Sequence record: OZ035797.1
Source of the DNA: Vectrevirus T147P1
Length of the DNA: 43,709 bases
Direction: 5' to 3' (one strand)
In this document: one piece after another, positions 5,974 through 14,668 of the stretch
Layout of the letters: each line of letters begins with the position of its first letter
How positions within the stretch are numbered: position 1 is the first letter of the stretch
Notes under the pieces: model-generated
The model's input: only the letters and a program-made list of their open reading frames with translations
What the model was told of the DNA's origin: nothing
Databases searched by the model: none
Translations under genes and position numbers: made by a program

Positions 5974-7686
5974 ATGCTTCAAAGATTAAGTGCTTACTTG
6001 GTGAAGTACAAGAGTAAACTAACAGGTACTATTGAGCGCCTGCTATCTGATAAACTATCGGATACAATAGATGTTGCGGATTTTGGAGTTAATCCATCTT
6101 CTAATGACAACAGGCAAGCCCTTCAAGCTGCATTCAATGCGGTCAGATTTCTAGGCGGAGGTACTGTATCAGTCACTAAAGCTGGCGAATATAAACTCAG
6201 TGGTACTGTTGAGATATTTGCTAATACACACTTCAAGGTTGCTAAAGGTGTAACATTTGTACGTGACTACGAAACAGGAGATACGCTATTCAGATTATCA
6301 CAAGGGCAAGCTAGTAATGTAACAGTCAGTGGAGGTGTCTATGAAGGCAATGGTCACATTAAAGGAGATACACCTTTTGTAGTATTTGCATCTACTAGTA
6401 ATAATGATTTGAAGTTTGAAGGCATAACAGTTAACAATGTAGTGGACTACCACGCCATAGATTTAGCAGATTGGAACAACGTAGTTATTCGTGATTGTAA
6501 GTTCCTAGGGTTTAAGAATACAGGCAGTCGTAACTTCTCAGAGGCTATACAGTTAGACCCAGGACTTATTACAGTAGGTCGCTATGTGCAGTCTAGTGGT
6601 TTACTGGTAGAGAATTGCTATGCTGGCCCAAACCTTGATTCTGGATTTGGCGGGTATGGTGCTCTAGTAGGAAATCATGCATCAGCTTATGGTGTTCAAG
6701 ATAACAACATTAGAATCCTAAATTGCACTACAGATGGTGCGCTCTTTGCAGGTGTACGTGTATTTAACTGGAAAAACTGGACAGTACGTGGTTGCACCTT
6801 TAGAAACTCTAATGCAAGAGGTGTTCATGTTACACCTGTCTCCTCTCAAACTAAACCGCAAGGAACTCGACAAGGCAGTGTTGTAGATTGTACTTTTGAT
6901 GGCGTAAGAACACCAGTGCTAATTGCGGCACCATCTTGGCCTTTTACCGATATTAGTGACATTTGGCATGACCATATTGAAATTTCTAATAATACTATGA
7001 TCCTCACAGAGGATGTATCCTATGGTGTAGATGCAAGGTGGTGTAAGAATTTAATTGTAAAAGGTAATACAGGCTCTGGTGGCTTAGGGTTAATCGGTTT
7101 ACGCTTTGGGACAAAATACCACATCGAAGGTAATACTTGGGAAAACGGAAGAGGTAGTGGGATTTGGTTAGGTGAGTCTGATGCTGCTACATTCATTGGT
7201 ACTGGCTTATCGGGCGAAGGTATACTTAGTCGTAATATCCTCTCTAAATTAGGGCAATATGGTATTCATGTAAACTGCAAGGTTGGCGGTCTAGTGATTA
7301 AGGCTAATAATATGAAGGAAGTATCTACAGCTGAAGCAGGTAGGCACTTCATTAGCATAGACACAGGAGCTAACAACATCCTAGTAGAAGGTAATATTGG
7401 AGTAGATGGAGAAAGCCCTAACAAGCCAAGCCTTGGTATTCGTGTTACTTCTTCTTGCTCCAATATTAAACTAATTGGCAATGATTGCTATGGTACGCAA
7501 GCACCTCAGAATAACCAAGGAGTCGGTTCTAGTACGGTGATTGTTTATGGACTAAATGGTAACCCTACAACTTTAGGCGTAGGTGCACCTGTAGGCTCTT
7601 TAGCAACTGATATCAATGGGTCTGGTGGTAGTACATTGTACGTTAAAGAATCTGGTACATCTGCTCAAGGTTGGGTTGCAAAGTAG
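5974..7686 (+). CDS. tailspike protein 2, pectate-lyase-like beta-helix depolymerase
   Basis: 570 aa after AAAAGGAGG; N-terminal IDVADFGVNPSSNDNRQALQAAF resembles the pectate-lyase-3 motif of capsule depolymerases; Gly/Asn-rich repeats. Confidence 0.75.
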   Translation: MLQRLSAYLVKYKSKLTGTIERLLSDKLSDTIDVADFGVNPSSNDNRQALQAAFNAVRFLGGGTVSVTKAGEYKLSGTVEIFANTHFKVAKGVTFVRDYETGDTLFRLSQGQASNVTVSGGVYEGNGHIKGDTPFVVFASTSNNDLKFEGITVNNVVDYHAIDLADWNNVVIRDCKFLGFKNTGSRNFSEAIQLDPGLITVGRYVQSSGLLVENCYAGPNLDSGFGGYGALVGNHASAYGVQDNNIRILNCTTDGALFAGVRVFNWKNWTVRGCTFRNSNARGVHVTPVSSQTKPQGTRQGSVVDCTFDGVRTPVLIAAPSWPFTDISDIWHDHIEISNNTMILTEDVSYGVDARWCKNLIVKGNTGSGGLGLIGLRFGTKYHIEGNTWENGRGSGIWLGESDAATFIGTGLSGEGILSRNILSKLGQYGIHVNCKVGGLVIKANNMKEVSTAEAGRHFISIDTGANNILVEGNIGVDGESPNKPSLGIRVTSSCSNIKLIGNDCYGTQAPQNNQGVGSSTVIVYGLNGNPTTLGVGAPVGSLATDINGSGGSTLYVKESGTSAQGWVAK

Positions 7687-7695
7687 TAGGATTGC

Positions 7696-7845
7696 ATGCC
7701 AATAATCAAATCAGTTAAGCAAAGTGCTGTACGCCAGAACACAGAAGAGCTTATTCAATCAGGCCGTGACCCTAAGCAAGCTTATGCCATTGCCAAGGGT
7801 GTACAACGTCGTGCCTTGAAGAAACCTTCTGCATCTTCTGCGTAA
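7696..7845 (+). CDS. hypothetical small basic protein (49 aa)
   Basis: ATG 10 nt after tailspike 2 stop; MPIIKSVKQSAVRQNTEELIQSGRDPKQAYAIAKGVQRRALKKPSASSA; weak SD. Confidence 0.3.
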   Translation: MPIIKSVKQSAVRQNTEELIQSGRDPKQAYAIAKGVQRRALKKPSASSA

Positions 7846-7849
7846 GCAG

Positions 7850-8700
7850 GTTAATATCTTAGTGTACACAAGGGCAGACCTAGGTTTGCTCTTAGTGTAT
7901 TTACAATGGAGGTCTTATGTATATACCTATTGAAGCAATAGTAGGTTGCCTATGTTTGTTGATAGGTTTCGTTATAGGCGTAATAGCAAAGCCTTAGTAC
8001 TGTACAAGGATTAACCAAAGTCAAAATTTTGATATAGGCGTGTGTCAGCTCTCTCGCCCTCGCCCTCGCCGGGTTGTCCCCATATGGGGTCGGTCGGCGG
8101 TTGACCTAGGAATTTGGCGGGGCGGGTCCGTCTTCAACCTGCTGCCGCAGGAAGCTCGACGGGTGGGCGAGGGCTTGCCTTGTACTCGCTTAGTGGTACA
8201 CAAGGAGAACGCCTAGGAAGCGCTAGGGCACGCCTTAGTATTGGACAAGGTGATTGCCTTAGTTCAACCGCTTAGAGCTTACACGGGCCGTTTTAGGGCC
8301 ATTCCTGAGCGTTTGACAGGGTGTGAGGGCGTGGGCTATCTGTTCGTTTCGTTCACTCCGCTTGCGCTACGTTCACTCGCTCACGTGTACCTTAGGTTAT
8401 TCCTTGATGGATAGCTTAGGTTAGCCTTAGTGGATTACCTTAGTTAAAGCCTTAGTGCTTCACTTAGTATCAGCTTAGTAGTGTACCTTAGTAAGTATTA
8501 GTGTCTTCTCTTAGTGATTGCACATGCAAGCATGTAAGATGCCATTAGGTCGCGGTCGGTAGACCGCTAAAGAAGGAGAATAGTAATAAGATGCAGTAGG
8601 AGGAACACCCGAAACCTAGCCAACCTAGCCTATCCTAGCTCTGTATCTATTGCTTTTCCTTAGTCTAACATGTGAGACAACCTAGATTTATCTTAGTGAT
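7850..8700. repeat. genome terminus-like non-coding region with short repeats
   Basis: no long ORF; two copies of CTTAGTG(G)TACACAAGG near 7859 and 8189; GC-rich island with CTCGCC x3 (8053-8070) and CCCCATATGGGG (8078-8089); >10 copies of CCTTAGT/GCTTAG within 8230-8520; resembles the T7 left-end architecture. Confidence 0.5.
8664..8679. repeat. degenerate copy of the palindromic hairpin family
   Basis: GTCTAACATGTGAGAC, one substitution from the GTCTCACATGTGAGAC palindrome. Confidence 0.35.
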
Positions 8701-8712
8701 GATATCTTAGTG

Positions 8713-8741
8713 TTGACAAGGCCATCTCAATATAATACTAT
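8713..8741 (+). promoter_or_regulatory. host sigma70-like early promoter candidate
   Basis: TTGACA, 17-nt spacer, TACTAT; position corresponds to T7 early promoters near the left end. Confidence 0.45.
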
Positions 8742-8842
8742 TCATCACGTAGGCAGCACTGAGGTGCTTAGTAGCCAGCTAGTAAGGCATACGAAGAGAC
8801 TAGCGCTTACATTGCTCTTTAACAATTTGCTTAGTGTAACCT

Positions 8843-9064
8843 ATGTATGCCGTGGTTAATTACTTATTGAATGAGGGATTAACTATGACATTAAACAACC
8901 GTGAACTATCCGTTCTCTTCACTCTGTTGTGCTACATGATTCGTAACAACGAATTACTTACAGATGATGAGTTAGCCTTGTATCACCGCTTTCTTAACGA
9001 AGGTTGGACCGATACAGTTAATCAATACCGTAACATGATAGATGAGTTGAGGGAGGGTAAATAA
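8843..9064 (+). CDS. hypothetical early protein (start may be ATG 8885)
   Basis: 73-aa ORF; internal ATG at 8885 has a better SD (GAGGGA); first ORF after the early promoter. Confidence 0.5.
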   Translation: MYAVVNYLLNEGLTMTLNNRELSVLFTLLCYMIRNNELLTDDELALYHRFLNEGWTDTVNQYRNMIDELREGK

Positions 9065-9288
9065 TGTATCAACATGAGGTATTCTTTGAATCAGCTAGCG
9101 AAGCTATTCGCTTCCGTGATGATATGATGCAAGCTGGTGTAGGCGTTGATGTGTATCACTATTTGATAGATTACGACACTGAATATCACCGAGTTACCTT
9201 AGTATCTGAGTATGACAACCAAGTCATTACTGAGTACCTAGGCAGTGAAGATTACGATTACGATGAAGTAATCACGACAAATCTCTAA
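9064..9288 (+). CDS. hypothetical acidic early protein
   Basis: 74-aa ORF overlapping the previous stop (TAATG); acidic, Tyr/Asp-rich C-terminus. Confidence 0.5.
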   Translation: MYQHEVFFESASEAIRFRDDMMQAGVGVDVYHYLIDYDTEYHRVTLVSEYDNQVITEYLGSEDYDYDEVITTNL

Positions 9289-9296
9289 ATTAACTG

Positions 9297-9325
9297 TTGA
9301 CAGCCACGGCATACAAGGTTACATT
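9297..9325 (+). promoter_or_regulatory. host sigma70-like early promoter candidate
   Basis: TTGACA, 17-nt spacer, TACATT. Confidence 0.5.
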
Positions 9326-9406
9326 AAGCACATAGCCGATAGGCAACGCTCTTTAACAATACGGTTTGTGTCTTGATAGGCTAACTAACTAACTAAGGTA
9401 ATTATC

Positions 9407-9517
9407 ATGAAAGGTTTAATTTGTGTAGAACGTATGGTCAATGGTAAACTTGAAATATTACCACTGGAAAACCAATCTAGCTTCAAAGAGTGGTATGGCT
9501 GTTTCTCACTGATTTAA
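9407..9517 (+). CDS. hypothetical small early ORF (36 aa)
   Basis: ATG after CTAACTAACTAACTAAGG; follows the conserved GCTCTTTAACAAT leader element. Confidence 0.3.
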   Translation: MKGLICVERMVNGKLEILPLENQSSFKEWYGCFSLI

Positions 9518-9666
9518 GGTAAAGGCTGGCACTAGTCAGCCTATCAAGGCGCAAACCAAGCTCTTTAACAATTTGGATGGTAGCTTCTTAGTCTGGATAG
9601 GTTAAACCTAGGGTATTCTTTTGAGTACCCTATAATGTAACCTAACTAACTAATGAGGATTAAATC

Positions 9667-9999
9667 ATGGAACGCAATGCTAACGCTTACTACAACCTTC
9701 TGGCTGCAACTGTTGAAGCATTCAACGAGCGTATTCAGTTTGATGAGATTCGCGAAGGTGATGATTACTCTGATGCACTACATGAGGTTGTAGACAGCAA
9801 TGTTCCAGTTTATTACAGCGAAATCTTTACAGTGATGGCTGCTGATGGTATTGATGTTGATTTTGAGGATGCTGGTTTGATTCCTGACACGAAGGATGTA
9901 ACCAAGATTCTACAAGCTCGCATCTATGAAGCTCTTTATAATGATGTACCAAATGACAGCGATGTAGTTTGGTGTGAAGGCGAAGAAGAGGAAGAATAA
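9667..9999 (+). CDS. ocr: Ocr (gp0.3) DNA-mimic anti-restriction protein
   Basis: 110 aa, acidic; DEIREGDDYSDALHEVVDSNVPVYYSEIFTVMAADGIDVDFEDAGLIPDTKDVTKILQARIYE aligns closely to T7 Ocr as recalled; poly-Glu C-terminus. Confidence 0.9.
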   Translation: MERNANAYYNLLAATVEAFNERIQFDEIREGDDYSDALHEVVDSNVPVYYSEIFTVMAADGIDVDFEDAGLIPDTKDVTKILQARIYEALYNDVPNDSDVVWCEGEEEEE

Positions 10000-10001
10000 G
10001 G

Positions 10002-10115
10002 ATGGAAAAGCAATATAACTTTATCTTTTCAGACGGTGTAACCCTGAAGTGTTCCCTACGATTCGCACAAATTCGTGAGGAAGTACTAGGCACTACATAC
10101 AAACTATTTAGCTGA
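10002..10115 (+). CDS. small early protein, possibly gp0.4-like
   Basis: 37-aa ORF after AAGGA, directly downstream of ocr as T7 gene 0.4 is; weak similarity (SDxV...SL..AQ..E). Confidence 0.3.
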   Translation: MEKQYNFIFSDGVTLKCSLRFAQIREEVLGTTYKLFS

Positions 10116-10191
10116 CACTATAAGAGAAGGCTTAACAAGGCGTTACTAAGGTAGCGCCTGATTAAACTTTCACTTACTAGAGGTTAAGATT

Positions 10192-10317
10192 ATGAAACTA
10201 TCGCCATCCGCTAAAGGTCTTATTGCAGAACTTAAAGACTCTTTGAGGAATCCAATCATTTGGGCACTTATCTACATACCTTATGGTATCTACCTATTTC
10301 ACCTCATCACTGAGTAA
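10192..10317 (+). CDS. small membrane peptide (41 aa)
   Basis: ATG after AGAGG; hydrophobic C-terminal half IIWALIYIPYGIYLFHLI. Confidence 0.3.
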   Translation: MKLSPSAKGLIAELKDSLRNPIIWALIYIPYGIYLFHLITE

Positions 10318-10380
10318 ATAGCCTATAGCCTACCTGAGTGGGCTATGTGATATTTACTTACACTATATAAGGTGACTATT

Positions 10381-11304
10381 ATGACTACTGAAAACATCCT
10401 CCTGTCTGTCCGTGAAGCTGCAACTGCTGAGATTAAGCAGCATTTGGATAATATCGGCACTTCTTACATCAAAGTTGGCGCTTGTCTGAATGAATTACGC
10501 GGTGATTTCGAAGGTCAAAAAGACTTTTTAGCTTATGTAGAATCAGAGTTCGGCATCAAGAAAGCACAATGCTACAAGCTGATGAGTGTAGCCCGTGTCT
10601 TTGAAGGAGACGAACGCTTTAAAGGTGTGGCTATGCGTGTAATGCTGGCGCTTGTTCCTTTCGCTGATGAAAATATAATCATGGAGAAGGCCGCAGAACT
10701 CGCCGCAGAGGGCAAGCTGGACACTAACGCCGTAAACGCTCTGATTGATCCTAAGAAAGAGACAAAGGCTGAGACGGTACAATCTAAGGCTGAGACAGTA
10801 AAACCGCAGGAGAACGCGACTGAGGCCGCAGAAACTATGCAAGGACATGCAACCTTTGAGGATTTCATCTTAGAGAAGGCGAAAGAGGATTTACAAAGTG
10901 TGCCGCCAGTAAGTGAGTCGGGTAACGACGAATCCGCACCGTGGGAAGAGGAAAGCAAACCGGAAGAGCCAAAGGCAGCTCCGATGGATAACACGGCTAA
11001 TACTGAGAATGCCGCTATTGCTGGTCTGCTGGCACAAATTAAAGCACTGACTGAGCAATTACAGGCAGCCAATGACCGCATCGCCTCCTTAAGTAGCGCA
11101 CGCGAAAGCAAGAAGGCAGCCGCGCCTATGCTGCCGCAATTCAAATCTTCCTGCTTCTATGCTCGCTTAGGTTTAAGCGCTGAGGAGGCAACGAAGAAAA
11201 CAGCAGTTAACAAGGCACGCCGCGAACTGGTTAAGCTAGGCTACGGCGAAGGCCATGAAGCATGGCCCTTAATCTCTGAGGCAGTAGAAGAATTAACTAA
11301 GTAA
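10381..11304 (+). CDS. early protein of unknown function (non-kinase occupant of the T7 0.7 position)
   Basis: ATG at 10381 after AAGGTG; 307 aa; helical N-domain, acidic low-complexity linker with repeated KAETV, C-terminal FYARLGLSAEEATKK...ARREL segment; no protein-kinase motifs. Confidence 0.6.
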   Translation: MTTENILLSVREAATAEIKQHLDNIGTSYIKVGACLNELRGDFEGQKDFLAYVESEFGIKKAQCYKLMSVARVFEGDERFKGVAMRVMLALVPFADENIIMEKAAELAAEGKLDTNAVNALIDPKKETKAETVQSKAETVKPQENATEAAETMQGHATFEDFILEKAKEDLQSVPPVSESGNDESAPWEEESKPEEPKAAPMDNTANTENAAIAGLLAQIKALTEQLQAANDRIASLSSARESKKAAAPMLPQFKSSCFYARLGLSAEEATKKTAVNKARRELVKLGYGEGHEAWPLISEAVEELTK

Positions 11305-11367
11305 CCTTATCGGTGGCATCTTCTTAGGTGTCACCTATTAAGGTTTCTTTCACTAGGAGTAAACAAG

Positions 11368-13995
11368 ATGCAAGACCTACACGCTATTCAACTTCAACTT
11401 GAAGAAGAAATGTTTAACGGCGGTATCCGTCGCTTTGAAGCGGACCAACAACGCCAGATTGCATCCGGTAATGAATCAGACACGGCATGGAATCGCCGCT
11501 TATTGTCCGAGTTAATCGCGCCAATGGCTGAAGGTATTCAGGCTTATAAGGAAGAGTACGAAGGCAAGCGCGGTCGTGCACCACGTGCATTGGCTTTCAT
11601 TAACTGCGTAGAAAATGAAGTGGCAGCGTATATCACGATGAAGATCGTAATGGATATGCTTAACACTGATGTAACCTTGCAAGCTATCGCTATGAATGTA
11701 GCTGACCGCATCGAAGACCAAGTGCGCTTCAGTAAACTAGAAGGCCATGCAGCTAAATATTTTGAGAAGGTCAAGAAGTCACTTAAGGCAAGTAAGACTA
11801 AATCATATCGCCATGCGCACAACGTAGCGGTCGTGGCTGAGAAGTCAGTAGCTGACCGTGACGCTGATTTCTCTCGCTGGGAAGCGTGGCCTAAAGATAC
11901 CTTGCTACAAATTGGGATGACCTTGCTTGAAATCTTAGAGAATAGCGTATTCTTCAACGGGCAACCTGTCTTCCTCCGCACCTTGCGCACTAATGGCGGC
12001 AAACATGGTGTTTACTACCTACAGACTAGCGAACACGTGGGTGAATGGATAACTGCATTTAAAGAGCACGTAGCTCAGCTGAGTCCAGCCTATGCGCCTT
12101 GCGTGATTCCTCCTCGTCCGTGGGTGTCACCTTTTAATGGCGGTTTTCACACGGAGAAGGTGGCAAGCCGTATTCGTCTGGTTAAAGGTAACCGCGAGCA
12201 CGTCCGCAAGCTGACCAAAAAGCAAATGCCAGCGGTTTACAAGGCTGTTAACGCCTTACAAGCTACTAAGTGGCAGGTTAACAAGGAAGTATTGCAGGTA
12301 GTAGAAGATGTTATTCGTCTAGACCTCGGTTATGGTGTACCTTCCTTTAAGCCGCTCATTGACCGCGAGAACAAACCAGCTAACCCTGTTCCTCTTGAGT
12401 TCCAGCACCTGCGAGGCCGTGAACTTAAAGAGATGCTAACGCCGGAACAATGGCAAGCCTTTATAAACTGGAAAGGAGAATGTACCAAGCTGTATACCGC
12501 TGAAACTAAGCGCGGAAGCAAGTCGGCGGCGACCGTTCGCATGGTTGGACAAGCCCGTAAATACAGCCAGTTTGACGCAATTTATTTTGTGTATGCACTG
12601 GACAGCCGTTCACGCGTTTATGCGCAATCTAGCACGCTCTCGCCGCAATCAAACGACTTAGGCAAGGCATTGCTCCGTTTTACCGAAGGGCAGCGTCTTG
12701 ATAGCACTGAGGCGCTTAAGTGGTTTTTGGTGAACGGGGCGAATAACTGGGGTTGGGATAAGAAAACTTTTGACGTGCGCACCGCTAACGTGCTGGATAG
12801 CGAATTTCAAGACATGTGCCGCGACATTGCAGCCGACCCGCTGACCTTCACTCAATGGGTAAATGCTGATTCCCCTTATGGCTTCCTTGCATGGTGCTTT
12901 GAATATGCGCGTTATCTGGATGCACTGGACGAAGGAACGCAAGACCAATTCATGACGCACCTACCCGTCCATCAAGATGGTAGTTGCTCTGGTATCCAGC
13001 ACTATAGCGCGATGTTACGAGATGAAGTAGGTGCGAAAGCAGTAAACCTTAAGCCTTCTGACTCCCCTCAAGATATTTATGGCGCGGTTGCGCAGGTTGT
13101 TATCCAGAAGAATTACGCCTACATGAATGCAGACGACGCAGTGACTTTCACATCCGGAAGCGTCACACTTACAGGTGCAGAACTGCGTAGCATGGCTAGT
13201 GCGTGGGATATGATAGGAATCACTCGCGGATTGACCAAAAAGCCCGTAATGACACTACCTTATGGCAGCACACGTCTAACCTGCCGTGAATCAGTGATTG
13301 ATTATATCGTTGATTTAGAAGAAAAAGAGGCCCAACGGGCTATTGCGGAAGGGCGTACCGCCAATCCTGTACACCCTTTTGATAATGACCGTAAAGACAG
13401 CCTGACACCTAGCGCAGCTTATAACTATATGACAGCTTTAATCTGGCCTTCTATTTCGGAAGTGGTTAAAGCTCCTATAGTGGCAATGAAAATGATTCGT
13501 CAGCTTGCCCGTTTCGCAGCTAAAAGGAATGAAGGCTTAGAGTATACCCTGCCTACTGGCTTCATCTTGCAACAAAAGATTATGGCTACTGATATGCTCC
13601 GCGTATCTACTTGCTTGATGGGAGAAATCAAGATGAGTCTACAGATTGAAACGGACGTAGTAGATGAAACGGCAATGATGGGCGCTGCTGCTCCTAACTT
13701 TGTGCATGGTCATGATGCCAGTCACCTTATCTTAACGGTCTGCGACCTTGTTGATAAAGGGATTACATCTATCGCAGTAATTCATGATTCTTTTGGCACT
13801 CATGCAGGCCGTACAGCCGATCTACGCAACAGCTTAAGGGCAGAAATGGTGAAAATGTACCAAGGCCGTAATGCACTGCAAAGCCTGCTAGATGAGCACG
13901 AAGAACGCTGGTTAGTTGATACAGGAATCCAAGTACCAGAGCAAGGGGAGTTTGACCTTAACGAAATCTTAGTTTCAGACTATTGCTTCGCATAA
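11368..13995 (+). CDS. single-subunit DNA-directed RNA polymerase (T7 gene 1 / SP6 RNAP family)
   Basis: 875 aa; [25 protein letters not shown]-terminal SDYCFA; [18 protein letters not shown] matches the T7 RNAP segment AINIAQNTAWKINKKVL. Confidence 0.95.
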
Positions 13996-14002
13996 TATTA
14001 AT

Positions 14003-14034
14003 AGGCCATTCCTTCGGGAGTGGCCTTTCTTTTA
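14003..14034 (+). terminator. early intrinsic terminator after the RNAP gene (TE-like)
   Basis: GGCCATTCC-TTCG-GGAGTGGCC hairpin with UUCG loop followed by TTTCTTTT. Confidence 0.6.
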
Positions 14035-14068
14035 CCTACTACCTGTAACATTTCATTAACATAAACGT

Positions 14069-14084
14069 GTCTCACACGTGAGAC
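14069..14084. repeat. palindromic hairpin element (family copy A)
   Basis: GTCTCACACGTGAGAC, immediately upstream of the promoter at 14087. Confidence 0.6.
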
Positions 14085-14086
14085 TT

Positions 14087-14109
14087 ATTTACCGGACACT
14101 ATAGGATAA
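14087..14109 (+). promoter_or_regulatory. phage RNAP promoter (phi1.1A-like)
   Basis: ATTTACCGGACACTATAGGAT. Confidence 0.65.
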
Positions 14110-14248
14110 CCGTCGGAGACGGAAAGAGAAGGGAAGATAAGGATATAAAGGAAGTAATAGGTATTAAAGGTTATATAGGTTTACCTAGGAATACCTATTA
14201 CCTTCTTCCTTCCTCTTATTACTACTTAGAGAAGGTCAGACCTAAGTT
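14110..14248. other. candidate primary origin of replication (AT-rich inverted repeat between tandem phage promoters)
   Basis: AT-rich; inverted repeat GGAAGTAATAGGTATT ... AATACCTATTACCTTC flanking GGTTATATAGGTTTACCTAGG; position matches the T7 primary origin between phi1.1A and phi1.1B. Confidence 0.35.
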
Positions 14249-14264
14249 GTCTCACATGTGAGAC
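14249..14264. repeat. palindromic hairpin element (family copy B)
   Basis: GTCTCACATGTGAGAC perfect palindrome, immediately upstream of the promoter at 14270. Confidence 0.6.
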
Positions 14265-14269
14265 TTCGT

Positions 14270-14290
14270 ATTTACCGGACAGTATAGATA
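14270..14290 (+). promoter_or_regulatory. phage RNAP promoter variant (phi1.1B-like)
   Basis: ATTTACCGGACAGTATAGATA; C to G change in the conserved CACTATA core. Confidence 0.45.
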
Positions 14291-14317
14291 AGACTAACTT
14301 ACTTTGGAGATTTAACC

Positions 14318-14446
14318 ATGCGTAACTTTGAGAAGATGACCCGTAAAGCTAACCGTTTTGACATGGAAGAAGGGCAGACGAAAGGCAAGAAGCTGAATAA
14401 ACCTGTCCGTGACCGTGCATCTAAACGCGCAGCATGGGAGTTCTGA
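14318..14446 (+). CDS. gp1.1-like small basic protein
   Basis: 42 aa after GGAG; MRNFEKMTRKANR...KGKKLNK..RDRA.KR resembles T7 gp1.1 as recalled. Confidence 0.55.
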   Translation: MRNFEKMTRKANRFDMEEGQTKGKKLNKPVRDRASKRAAWEF

Positions 14447-14449
14447 GTT

Positions 14450-14668
14450 ATGGCTAAATACAGAATCAAGACCTGTTTAAATAGTCACGGGCAAGAGTTC
14501 TACGTAGTGCAACGTAAAGTATTAGGCTTAATATGGGTCACTTGTATGATGCCTATTGGCTATACTGATACAGAGGCTATCTTCTGCACCGAAAGGGATG
14601 CAAAGAAGTTTATCTCTAAGCGTAGAAAAGCTGACTCTTACCAACCTAGAATTATTAAGGTGAACTAA
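14450..14668 (+). CDS. hypothetical protein
   Basis: 72-aa ORF between the gp1.1-like gene and primase/helicase; 4-nt spacing upstream, overlapping stop/start downstream. Confidence 0.5.
   Translation: MAKYRIKTCLNSHGQEFYVVQRKVLGLIWVTCMMPIGYTDTEAIFCTERDAKKFISKRRKADSYQPRIIKVN

Follow-up and report, generated by a model that had tools for sequence, protein, structure and literature searches.

The stretch of DNA analysed here, called the window throughout, comprises 43,709 nucleotides of Vectrevirus T147P1 (sequence record OZ035797.1). Positions 8400-10200 share 96.5% identity with Escherichia phage K1-5 (nt 296-2105) and were matched by more than 100 SP6-group records of the genera Vectrevirus and Zindervirus. 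Judged from these matches, the window represents the genome of a K1-5-like (SP6-group) podovirus in circularly permuted form, in which K1-5 nt 1 corresponds to approximately position 8105, which places the repeated motif described below at the start of the early region. From the left end, the early region contains several small ORFs, ocr, a 310-aa ORF and the phage RNA polymerase gene (11368-13995), which closes it. The ocr gene (9667..9999, + strand), which encodes a DNA-mimic anti-restriction protein, was recognized by Pfam PF08684 with an E-value of 9.6e-31. A strong intrinsic terminator (14003..14033, + strand), made of a 10-bp stem with six GC pairs (14003-14026) followed by TTCTTTT, starts 8 nt past the RNA polymerase gene and is likely to end the early transcription by the host polymerase, as an analogue of TE. 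The K1-5-type phage promoter motif was first found at 10113 and next at 14094, and no such motif was present within 7700-10112. The early leaders discussed here therefore lie in territory that, early in infection, should be transcribed only by the host polymerase.

The earlier note on this DNA had pointed out a 13-mer, GCTCTTTAACAAT, repeated in the early leaders. The exact sequence was indeed present at 8814..8826 (copy 1), 9348..9360 (copy 2) and 9560..9572 (copy 3), in all cases on the + strand. Copy 1 heads the leader of gene 1, designated type A (SD GAGGG at 8873-8877, ATG at 8885), copy 2 heads a short type B leader of a 36-aa ORF (ATG at 9407), and copy 3 heads the long type C leader of ocr (ATG at 9667). 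The distances from the motif end to the ATG were 58, 46, and 94 nt for copies 1, 2, and 3, respectively, in agreement with the spacing of 30-110 nt before a start codon given previously. Only a single near match with two mismatches was found, at 7595 within the tailspike ORF. When the window was searched with the degenerate sequence GYTCTTTAANA, three matches were obtained against 0.28 expected, all of them in the early region, and none of 100 shuffled sequences reached three.

It had also been proposed that each copy lies behind a sigma-70-like promoter or candidate; this was borne out for copies 1 and 2 but not for copy 3. The candidate promoter P1 (8713..8741, + strand; TTGACA-17-TACTAT, a 10/12 match) has a predicted start at ~8748, so that copy 1 is located at ~+66, and the same TTGACA context was observed in relatives. 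The second candidate, P2 (9297..9325, + strand; TTGACA-17-TACATT), has its -10 hexamer 22 nt from the start of copy 2, and the P2 module TTGACAGCCACGGCATACAAGGTTACATT is kept in K1-5 and K1E as well as in Klebsiella and Proteus relatives. Both candidates have perfect -35 hexamers. No promoter-like site was found upstream of copy 3, including the interval between P2 and copy 3. Copy 3 lies 212 nt downstream of copy 2 and belongs to the same predicted transcript.

The 13-mer was identical at 13/13 positions to the boxA of the E. coli K-12 rrnB leader (517-529 of record L002), which lies 31 nt past the P2 region of that operon (TGCTCTTTAACAATTTATCAG), and over GCTCTTTAACAATTTG the identity of copies 1 and 3 with the rrnB leader was 15/16. 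The E. coli 16S-23S spacer carries a boxA variant, GCTCTTTAAAAATCTGG. The occurrence of the sequence in the T7 leader, as stated in the note, is also real: T7 nt 813-825, between A3 (start 750) and gene 0.3 (925), are identical to the 13-mer, and so are nt 781-793 of T3. The functional gamma-proteobacterial BoxA consensus, GYTCTTTAANA, was derived from rrn, suhB, and mutational data (Baniulyte et al., PMC5725501), and the rrnB-leader 13-mer is a defined NusB/NusE site (PMC5725501). All three copies in the window fit this consensus perfectly. By sequence, then, the thrice-repeated 13-mer is an rrn-type boxA, that is, a known device present in three copies and no new kind of leader.

To see how the element is distributed, the early regions of K1-5, K1E, SP6, and 17 IMG/VR relatives were compared, together with those of SP6-group phages of Klebsiella, Proteus, Enterobacter, and Erwinia and those of T3, T7, Klebsiella P560, and KP34. 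Consensus matches in 30 related phage loci were all on the gene strand and all in early intergenic leaders. The copy number was three in phages of the K1-5 and K1E types, two in SP6, PM116, and several others, and one in T7, T3, P560, and Era103, and no boxA was found in the first 9 kb of the enterobacterial autographivirus KP34. In 57 non-redundant contexts from the 30 loci, changes were confined to positions 2 (C>T), 10 (C>T), 12, and 13, although for the 11 core positions this profile is in part circular, the contexts having been selected by their match to the consensus. Positions 2 and 10 are those left free by the consensus, and positions 12-13 lie outside it. Upstream of ocr, SP6 (GATCTTTAACAAT) and Kpp-61 (GCTCTTTGACAAT) carry extra copies that look decayed, with changes in the core, beside intact ones. 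Since copy 3 has decayed in these two phages, not every boxA copy is indispensable.

The sequences flanking boxA were unrelated to one another and behaved as swappable modules: upstream there is either a promoter (TTGACAGCCACGGCATACAAGGTTACATT plus ~22 nt) or a small hairpin, and downstream there is one of the three leader types. The alignment of early leaders thus upheld the idea of modular early leaders common to SP6-like and T7-like phages. The relative L012 equals the window minus exactly the 212-bp cassette from copy 2 to copy 3, with 98% identity upstream of copy 2 and 89% downstream of copy 3, and the same fusion was found in L007 and L021. Because exactly this cassette is missing, the identical boxA cores also mark points of cassette gain and loss. 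This exact removal could be taken to mean that the 13-mers are functionless and represent nothing more than the cores kept in duplicated leader modules, or joints of recombination. However, the core stays invariant while both flanks diverge or are swapped, the changes fall only at positions that the NusB/NusE consensus leaves free, and the identical core recurs in T7, T3, Klebsiella, Proteus, and T5-like phages and in host rrn. We consider a passive repeat extremely unlikely, and a role as a recombination joint is in any case compatible with antitermination, so that the two may coexist.

An exact scan of IMG/VR for GCTCTTTAACAATNTGG returned at least 120 contigs. T7-like and SP6-like contigs were among the matches listed, and so was the T5-like Proteus phage Stubb, whose pre-early region contains four promoter-plus-boxA modules co-directional with dmp and A1. 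Lambdoid SfIV-like phages were listed as well, in which boxA lies near the repressor region and has a hairpin immediately in front of it, and so were contigs in which boxA directly precedes tRNA genes, for example L119. As the listed matches span T7-like, SP6-like, T5-like, lambdoid, and tRNA-gene contigs, the use of BoxA by phages is broad.

The secondary structure of the leaders bears on the function that had been ascribed to the repeat, namely RNA processing or translational insulation. In the predicted MFE folds the boxA copies are unpaired, and the predicted P(unpaired) of the boxA 11-mers is 0.08-0.19 against a median of 0.008, which ranks them in the top 2-11% of 11-mers of the early transcript. 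Downstream of copy 3, folding and covariation revealed a bipartite hairpin at 9584..9658 (+ strand), in which a lower stem (9584-9604 with 9638-9658) is separated by an internal loop from an upper stem (9609-9618 with 9623-9632). The fold has a free energy of -27.7 kcal/mol and a z-score of -4.1, or -5.6 with its context. Among 13 relatives, 98.7% of the pair cells at the 29 pairs were standard, compared with 28-48% when the partners were slid, and two pairs of the upper stem showed fully compensatory changes (G-C/A-U and U-A/G-C) with a U-G intermediate. These counts come from alignment A2 (13 sequences); alignment A1 (17 sequences) misplaced the leaders of the Klebsiella type. In the Klebsiella relatives (L013-15, L023) the lower stem is retained under a different upper hairpin, and Proteus PM116 is predicted to fold into the same bipartite layout with stems of different sequence. 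At the base of the hairpin, CUUC (9584-9587) pairs with the ocr SD GAGG (9655-9658), and this pairing was invariant in the 13 sequences. Copy 3 itself is left unpaired in the fold, with 11 nt between its end and the start of the hairpin.

Comparison of the folded leaders with T7 R0.3, which had been suggested as a check, showed that copy 3 shares its layout: boxA (9560), hairpin (9584-9658), and ocr (9667). T7, T3, and the window have the same order of boxA, bipartite hairpin, CU/A-rich tract, and SD, and the first gene of T7 is also ocr. In T3, the stem-loop 29 nt past boxA is annotated as the RNase III site R0.3 (822-875). The hairpins of T7/T3 and of the window are unrelated in sequence and have only the layout in common, and RNase III cleavage is documented for the former, whereas the hairpin at 9584-9658 is, by analogy, a candidate RNase III processing site. 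Cleavage there would free the ocr SD. RNase III cleavage was reportedly found by Dunn and Studier in 1975 to stimulate the translation of T7 0.3 mRNA. In contrast to the leader of copy 3, no long hairpin was found in leaders A and B, whose folds were not better than those of shuffled sequences (z -1.9 and +0.4), and for this reason we claim no processing hairpin for them.

RNA processing is thus plausible for the 9584-9658 hairpin only, and not for the 13-mer. That the 13-mer itself might be an RNase III processing signal or a translational insulator is suggested by its location, always in leaders and 46-94 nt before a start codon, and by its distance of 29-31 nt from the R0.3-type hairpin in T3 and T7 and of 11 nt from the hairpin described here. 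A processing signal is, however, difficult to reconcile with a motif that has no predicted pairing, is not part of any conserved stem, lacks a long hairpin in two of its three positions, and occurs in the rrnB leader as a NusB/NusE site. Nor does insulation account for a 13-mer that in other phages stands before tRNA genes, which are not translated. The exact match to the E. coli rrn boxA, an antitermination element bound by NusB/NusE, speaks against both functions, which we regard as improbable.

The idea of insulation had also drawn on stop codons in all three frames. As reported, CTAACTAACTAA stands immediately before the SD in two leaders, at 9381/9385 and 9642, with three matches against 0.24 expected. 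The first site is a (CTAA)4 tract (9381..9396, + strand), predicted to be unpaired and located directly 5' of the SD AAGGT (9395-9399). The second is a (CTAA)3 block (9642..9653, + strand), which forms the 3' arm of the lower stem of the hairpin by pairing with CUUAGUCUGGAUAGGUUA; at this site, AACCTAACTAACTAA was invariant in 17 relatives. At the position of the (CTAA)4 tract, relatives have CTAACTACTTACTAAGG, CTTACTAACAAAGG, or CTTACTAATAAGG, so that three-frame stops are not conserved in leader B. Three frames are always closed in type C leaders, one to three in the type B leaders of relatives (only one or two in K1E, L006, L011, and L027), and two in type A leaders, and the Proteus PM116 leader has (ATCA)n instead. 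An all-frame stop block as a conserved trait consequently fails, since the type A and B tracts of relatives often close one or two frames. The stop-block idea is also weak at 9642, where the sequence is the 3' arm of a hairpin. The conserved trait is a G-poor CU/A tract before the SD, and we read the stops as a by-product.

Several known systems indicate what an rrn-type boxA may do on these transcripts. According to published abstracts, the Nus complex confers Rho-resistant, fast elongation in rrn operons. BoxA also protects the untranslated CRISPR arrays of Salmonella against Rho (PMC7665894), and stand-alone BoxA complexes counter Rho-dependent termination (PMC5725501, PMC7665894). Polymerases of the T7 type do not respond to Nus factors (PMC5725501). 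The boxA that follows the T7 early promoters is called an anti-termination element in PMC3709561, which also states that Gp2, the inhibitor of the host polymerase, becomes dispensable when boxA is mutated, as it does with promoter-down mutations (Savalia 2010, via PMC3709561).

By analogy with these systems, we estimate at about three in four the probability that the boxA copies are NusB/NusE loading sites that make the host polymerase Rho-resistant up to the terminator at 14003. Host RNA polymerase would start at P1 and P2 and transcribe the boxA copies, and the single-stranded GCUCUUUAACA RNA would bind the host NusB-NusE(S10) heterodimer. NusB-NusE on boxA would then nucleate a Nus complex (NusA, NusG, SuhB) on the elongating polymerase, which would resist termination by Rho, and probably move faster, across ~5.2 kb in which ORFs are short and untranslated leaders long. 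The last elements of this Rho-resistant stretch would be the phage RNA polymerase gene and the intrinsic terminator behind it. Copy 3 would serve as an internal reloading site ahead of the ocr processing hairpin, like the boxA of the rrn spacer, and the RNase III-type hairpin would keep the ocr SD inaccessible before cleavage, in the manner of the boxA-R0.3-gene 0.3 arrangement of T7. The reading is based on the observed sequence identity, consensus fit, strand, position, and conservation pattern of the copies and on the observed covariation of the hairpin, from which we infer Nus binding, antitermination, RNase III cleavage, and release of the SD. Stand-alone BoxA complexes are not known to suppress intrinsic terminators. 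As they are documented to act against Rho-dependent termination, an early region that ends at the intrinsic terminator 14003 fits a stand-alone BoxA. No Rho-dependent terminator was identified in the early region, where the windows of a C/G-skew scan for rut-like regions were unremarkable, and when 8000-14500 was scanned against Rfam by E-value, no known RNA family was recovered, the matches being to miRNAs and snoRNAs at chance level.

The E. coli rrn operons resemble the early region in that a boxA lies shortly downstream of sigma-70 promoters and a second one further along the transcript, just 5' of a processing stem. They differ in that the phage transcripts are protein-coding and carry three copies in 760 nt. 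Furthermore, the rrn antitermination complex (NusA, NusB, NusE, NusG, SuhB, S4) acts as a chaperone of rRNA folding, a role with no obvious counterpart in the phage. The spacing of boxA from T7 A3 is the same as that from P1 in the window (~+64 to +66), whereas in T7 and T3 a single boxA follows three tandem promoters and this phage has three copies among dispersed promoters and cassettes. The BoxA elements of Salmonella CRISPR arrays and of the suhB 5' UTR likewise stand alone, without N protein, on non-rRNA transcripts; they belong to host genes and are present in a single copy, and the suhB element is repressive, unlike the role proposed here.

The suhB case nevertheless offers an alternative, in which a Nus complex on boxA loops the leader and blocks the SD, so that the first gene of each cassette is damped and exposed to Rho, and boxA acts as a brake on early proteins. 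In suhB, a BoxA within ~50 nt of the start codon inhibits translation, which is followed by Rho termination, and the effect can reach over more than 50 nt (PMC5725501); copies 1 and 2 end 58 and 46 nt before their ATGs. For a virulent phage, however, damping of the early genes, including ocr and ultimately the RNA polymerase gene, would be costly, boxA also precedes phage tRNA genes that are not translated, and the genetic evidence from T7 (PMC3709561) favours antitermination. Repression of this kind is therefore unlikely here, though it is the alternative to which we give the most weight. A decoy function was also weighed, in which abundant early RNAs with three BoxA copies titrate NusB/NusE/SuhB away from host rrn and thereby aid host shut-off. 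Three perfect host-type sites, identical to the host rrn site and located behind predicted strong promoters, would suit such a decoy, but T7 manages with one copy, and antitermination in cis explains more simply the orientation of the copies and their position right behind promoters. We judge a decoy very unlikely.

Antitermination by the boxA copies may have a further consequence. Entry of the T7 genome is driven by transcription by the host polymerase. Because entry in the T7 group depends on host transcription in this way, a termination-proof and faster polymerase would also speed genome entry. Taken together with the wider occurrence of the element, this allows a tentative and rather doubtful generalization: promoter-plus-BoxA heads may be a general, portable device of those virulent enterobacterial phages in which the host enzyme transcribes the first genes, with the cores as cassette joints and possibly with a drain on Nus factors. 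It would cover T7-like phages (one copy), SP6/K1-5-like phages (two or three), and T5-like phages (four, in the pre-early region of Proteus phage Stubb). If it is true, these phages borrow the fast, Rho-proof elongation of the rRNA type and thereby speed both transcription-driven genome entry and early expression. The multi-copy cassette-head layout and its recurrence in T5-like phages suggest such a broader rule.

The repeat looks functional, but BoxA as such, as well as its presence and role in T7, is already established, and any novelty is confined to the way in which several copies are arranged as cassette heads in the SP6/K1-5 group. The inspected GenBank records of K1-5, K1E, SP6, and T7 contain no boxA annotation, and in the literature on boxA with SP6, K1-5, Autographiviridae, or lytic phages, within a scope that lay outside the original SP6 and K1-5 genome papers, only the papers on T7 Gp2 and udk were found. 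The functional label of the repeat is corrected, from processing or insulation to a host transcription-elongation signal. K1-5/SP6-like phages are predicted to require NusB, NusE, and SuhB of the host during early infection. Such a dependence would matter for host range and phage-resistance mutations and for the engineering of early-gene cassettes in therapeutic K1-specific phages.

Other elements near boxA were compared with those of the known systems. As in lambda nut, NusB/NusE would act on the boxA of a phage early transcript. The lambda boxA is a weaker variant, CGCTCTTA. Lambda needs N bound to a downstream boxB hairpin, whereas the boxA of the window is of the full rrn type, and the predicted folds contain no boxB-like hairpin directly downstream of copies 1 and 2. 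Unlike E. coli rrn, the phage has no boxB 3 nt upstream of boxA and no clear boxC. The P1 leader contains a small hairpin, AGCAC-UGAG-GUGCU (8755..8768, + strand), which was read by eye from the sequences. Its counterparts are GGUGC-UGAG-GCACC in K1-5 and GGAAG-UGA-CUUCC in Proteus PM116, and since these variants still pair, the stem is kept by compensatory changes; the hairpin may be boxB-like. An 8-bp hairpin without a U-tract, AGGCUGGC-ACUA-GUCAGCCU (9523..9542, + strand; -14.2 kcal/mol, z -2.8), ends 17 nt upstream of copy 3, and its counterpart in K1E-type relatives, GCCAGC-UUAAUA-GCUGGC, again read by eye, has the arms swapped. On the 3' side, the extension AAT-N-TGG of the E. coli rrn spacer copy matches the phage copies. 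The positions 3' of the core (AAT-N-TG) were nearly invariant among the phages, and they resemble the rrn spacer and T7/T3 versions.

The sequence immediately downstream of the boxA core was compared among 57 non-redundant phage boxA contexts, which had been chosen by their match to the consensus GYTCTTTAANA. The motif A-T-N-T-G, often followed by another G, was nearly invariant at +12 to +16 from the boxA start, just after the 11-nt core; in the window it is exemplified by positions 8825-8830. This extension agrees with the rrn spacer and the T7/T3 versions of boxA (AATCTGG) but not with the rrnB leader (AATTTAT).

Relatives differed from the window in their boxA copies. In L012 (4183), L007 (4176), and L021 (4415), the module of the sigma-70-type promoter candidate P2 is joined directly to the leader of the anti-restriction gene ocr at a single boxA, whereas the window has two copies in the corresponding region (9348-9572). 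The difference is a 212-bp cassette carrying a 36-aa ORF, whose gain or loss took place precisely from one boxA copy to the next. Upstream of ocr, degenerate boxA sequences were found in SP6 (GATCTTTAACAAT at 1536) and in Kpp-61 (GCTCTTTGACAAT at 1319), and both phages carry two intact copies elsewhere.

The annotated gene 1 start at 8885 is preceded by the SD sequence GAGGG (8873-8877). A second ATG, which lacks an SD, lies in frame 42 nt upstream of this start (8843-8884), leaving the gene 1 frame open in all relatives through leader A, the boxA1-headed leader of gene 1.

The T5-like Proteus phage Stubb contains four modules of a sigma-70 promoter and boxA on the minus strand (4811, 4899, 5601, and 5776), in which boxA is located 18-22 nt past the -10 hexamer. 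These modules are situated in the pre-early region in the same direction as the dmp and A1 genes, indicating that the same design is present outside the T7 supergroup. In SfIV-like lambdoid phages, the hairpin AGCGCCCTACAGGACGCT directly precedes a full rrn-type boxA (GCTCTTTAACAATCTGG) adjoining the repressor region; among the matches listed, this arrangement was found in L035, L065, and some 30 further IMG/VR loci of the same kind. The order in these temperate phages, a hairpin and then boxA, is rrn-like. In three viral contigs (L093, L094, and L119) tRNA genes directly follow boxA, which in L094 and L119 is preceded by a TATAAT-containing sequence. The location of boxA before tRNA genes is consistent with a role in shielding untranslated RNA from Rho.

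The hexamer CTTAGT was present in 19 copies on the plus strand within ~1 kb surrounding the left end of the genome (7858-8835). The whole window contains 51 copies against 30 expected, a total that was reached by none of 100 shuffles; one copy lies just 3' of boxA1 and another 3' of boxA3. These copies are possibly related to short repeats that adjoin the terminal repeat of T7-group genomes. A GC-rich stretch at 8040-8400 (ctcgccctcgccctcgcc and similar sequences) spans the position equivalent to K1-5 nt 1 (~8105). The window is circularly permuted, and its terminal-repeat region is collapsed.

The first phage-polymerase promoter, ATTTAGCTGACACTATAAGAGA, lies directly before a long hairpin of irregular structure (-28.6 kcal/mol; together 10106-10186), and both precede the gene at 10192. 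The hairpin is a second RNase III-like candidate; an Rfam search with it returned only chance matches to miRNA models. Farther downstream, within 14069-14290, the palindrome GTCTCACAYGTGAGAC occurs twice (14069 and 14249), in both cases with a phage promoter-like site after it (14094 and ~14268, respectively). Between these pairs lies a long AT-rich hairpin (14125-14216; -28.7 kcal/mol). The layout resembles the promoter-flanked primary replication origin located 3' of gene 1 in T7 and T3.
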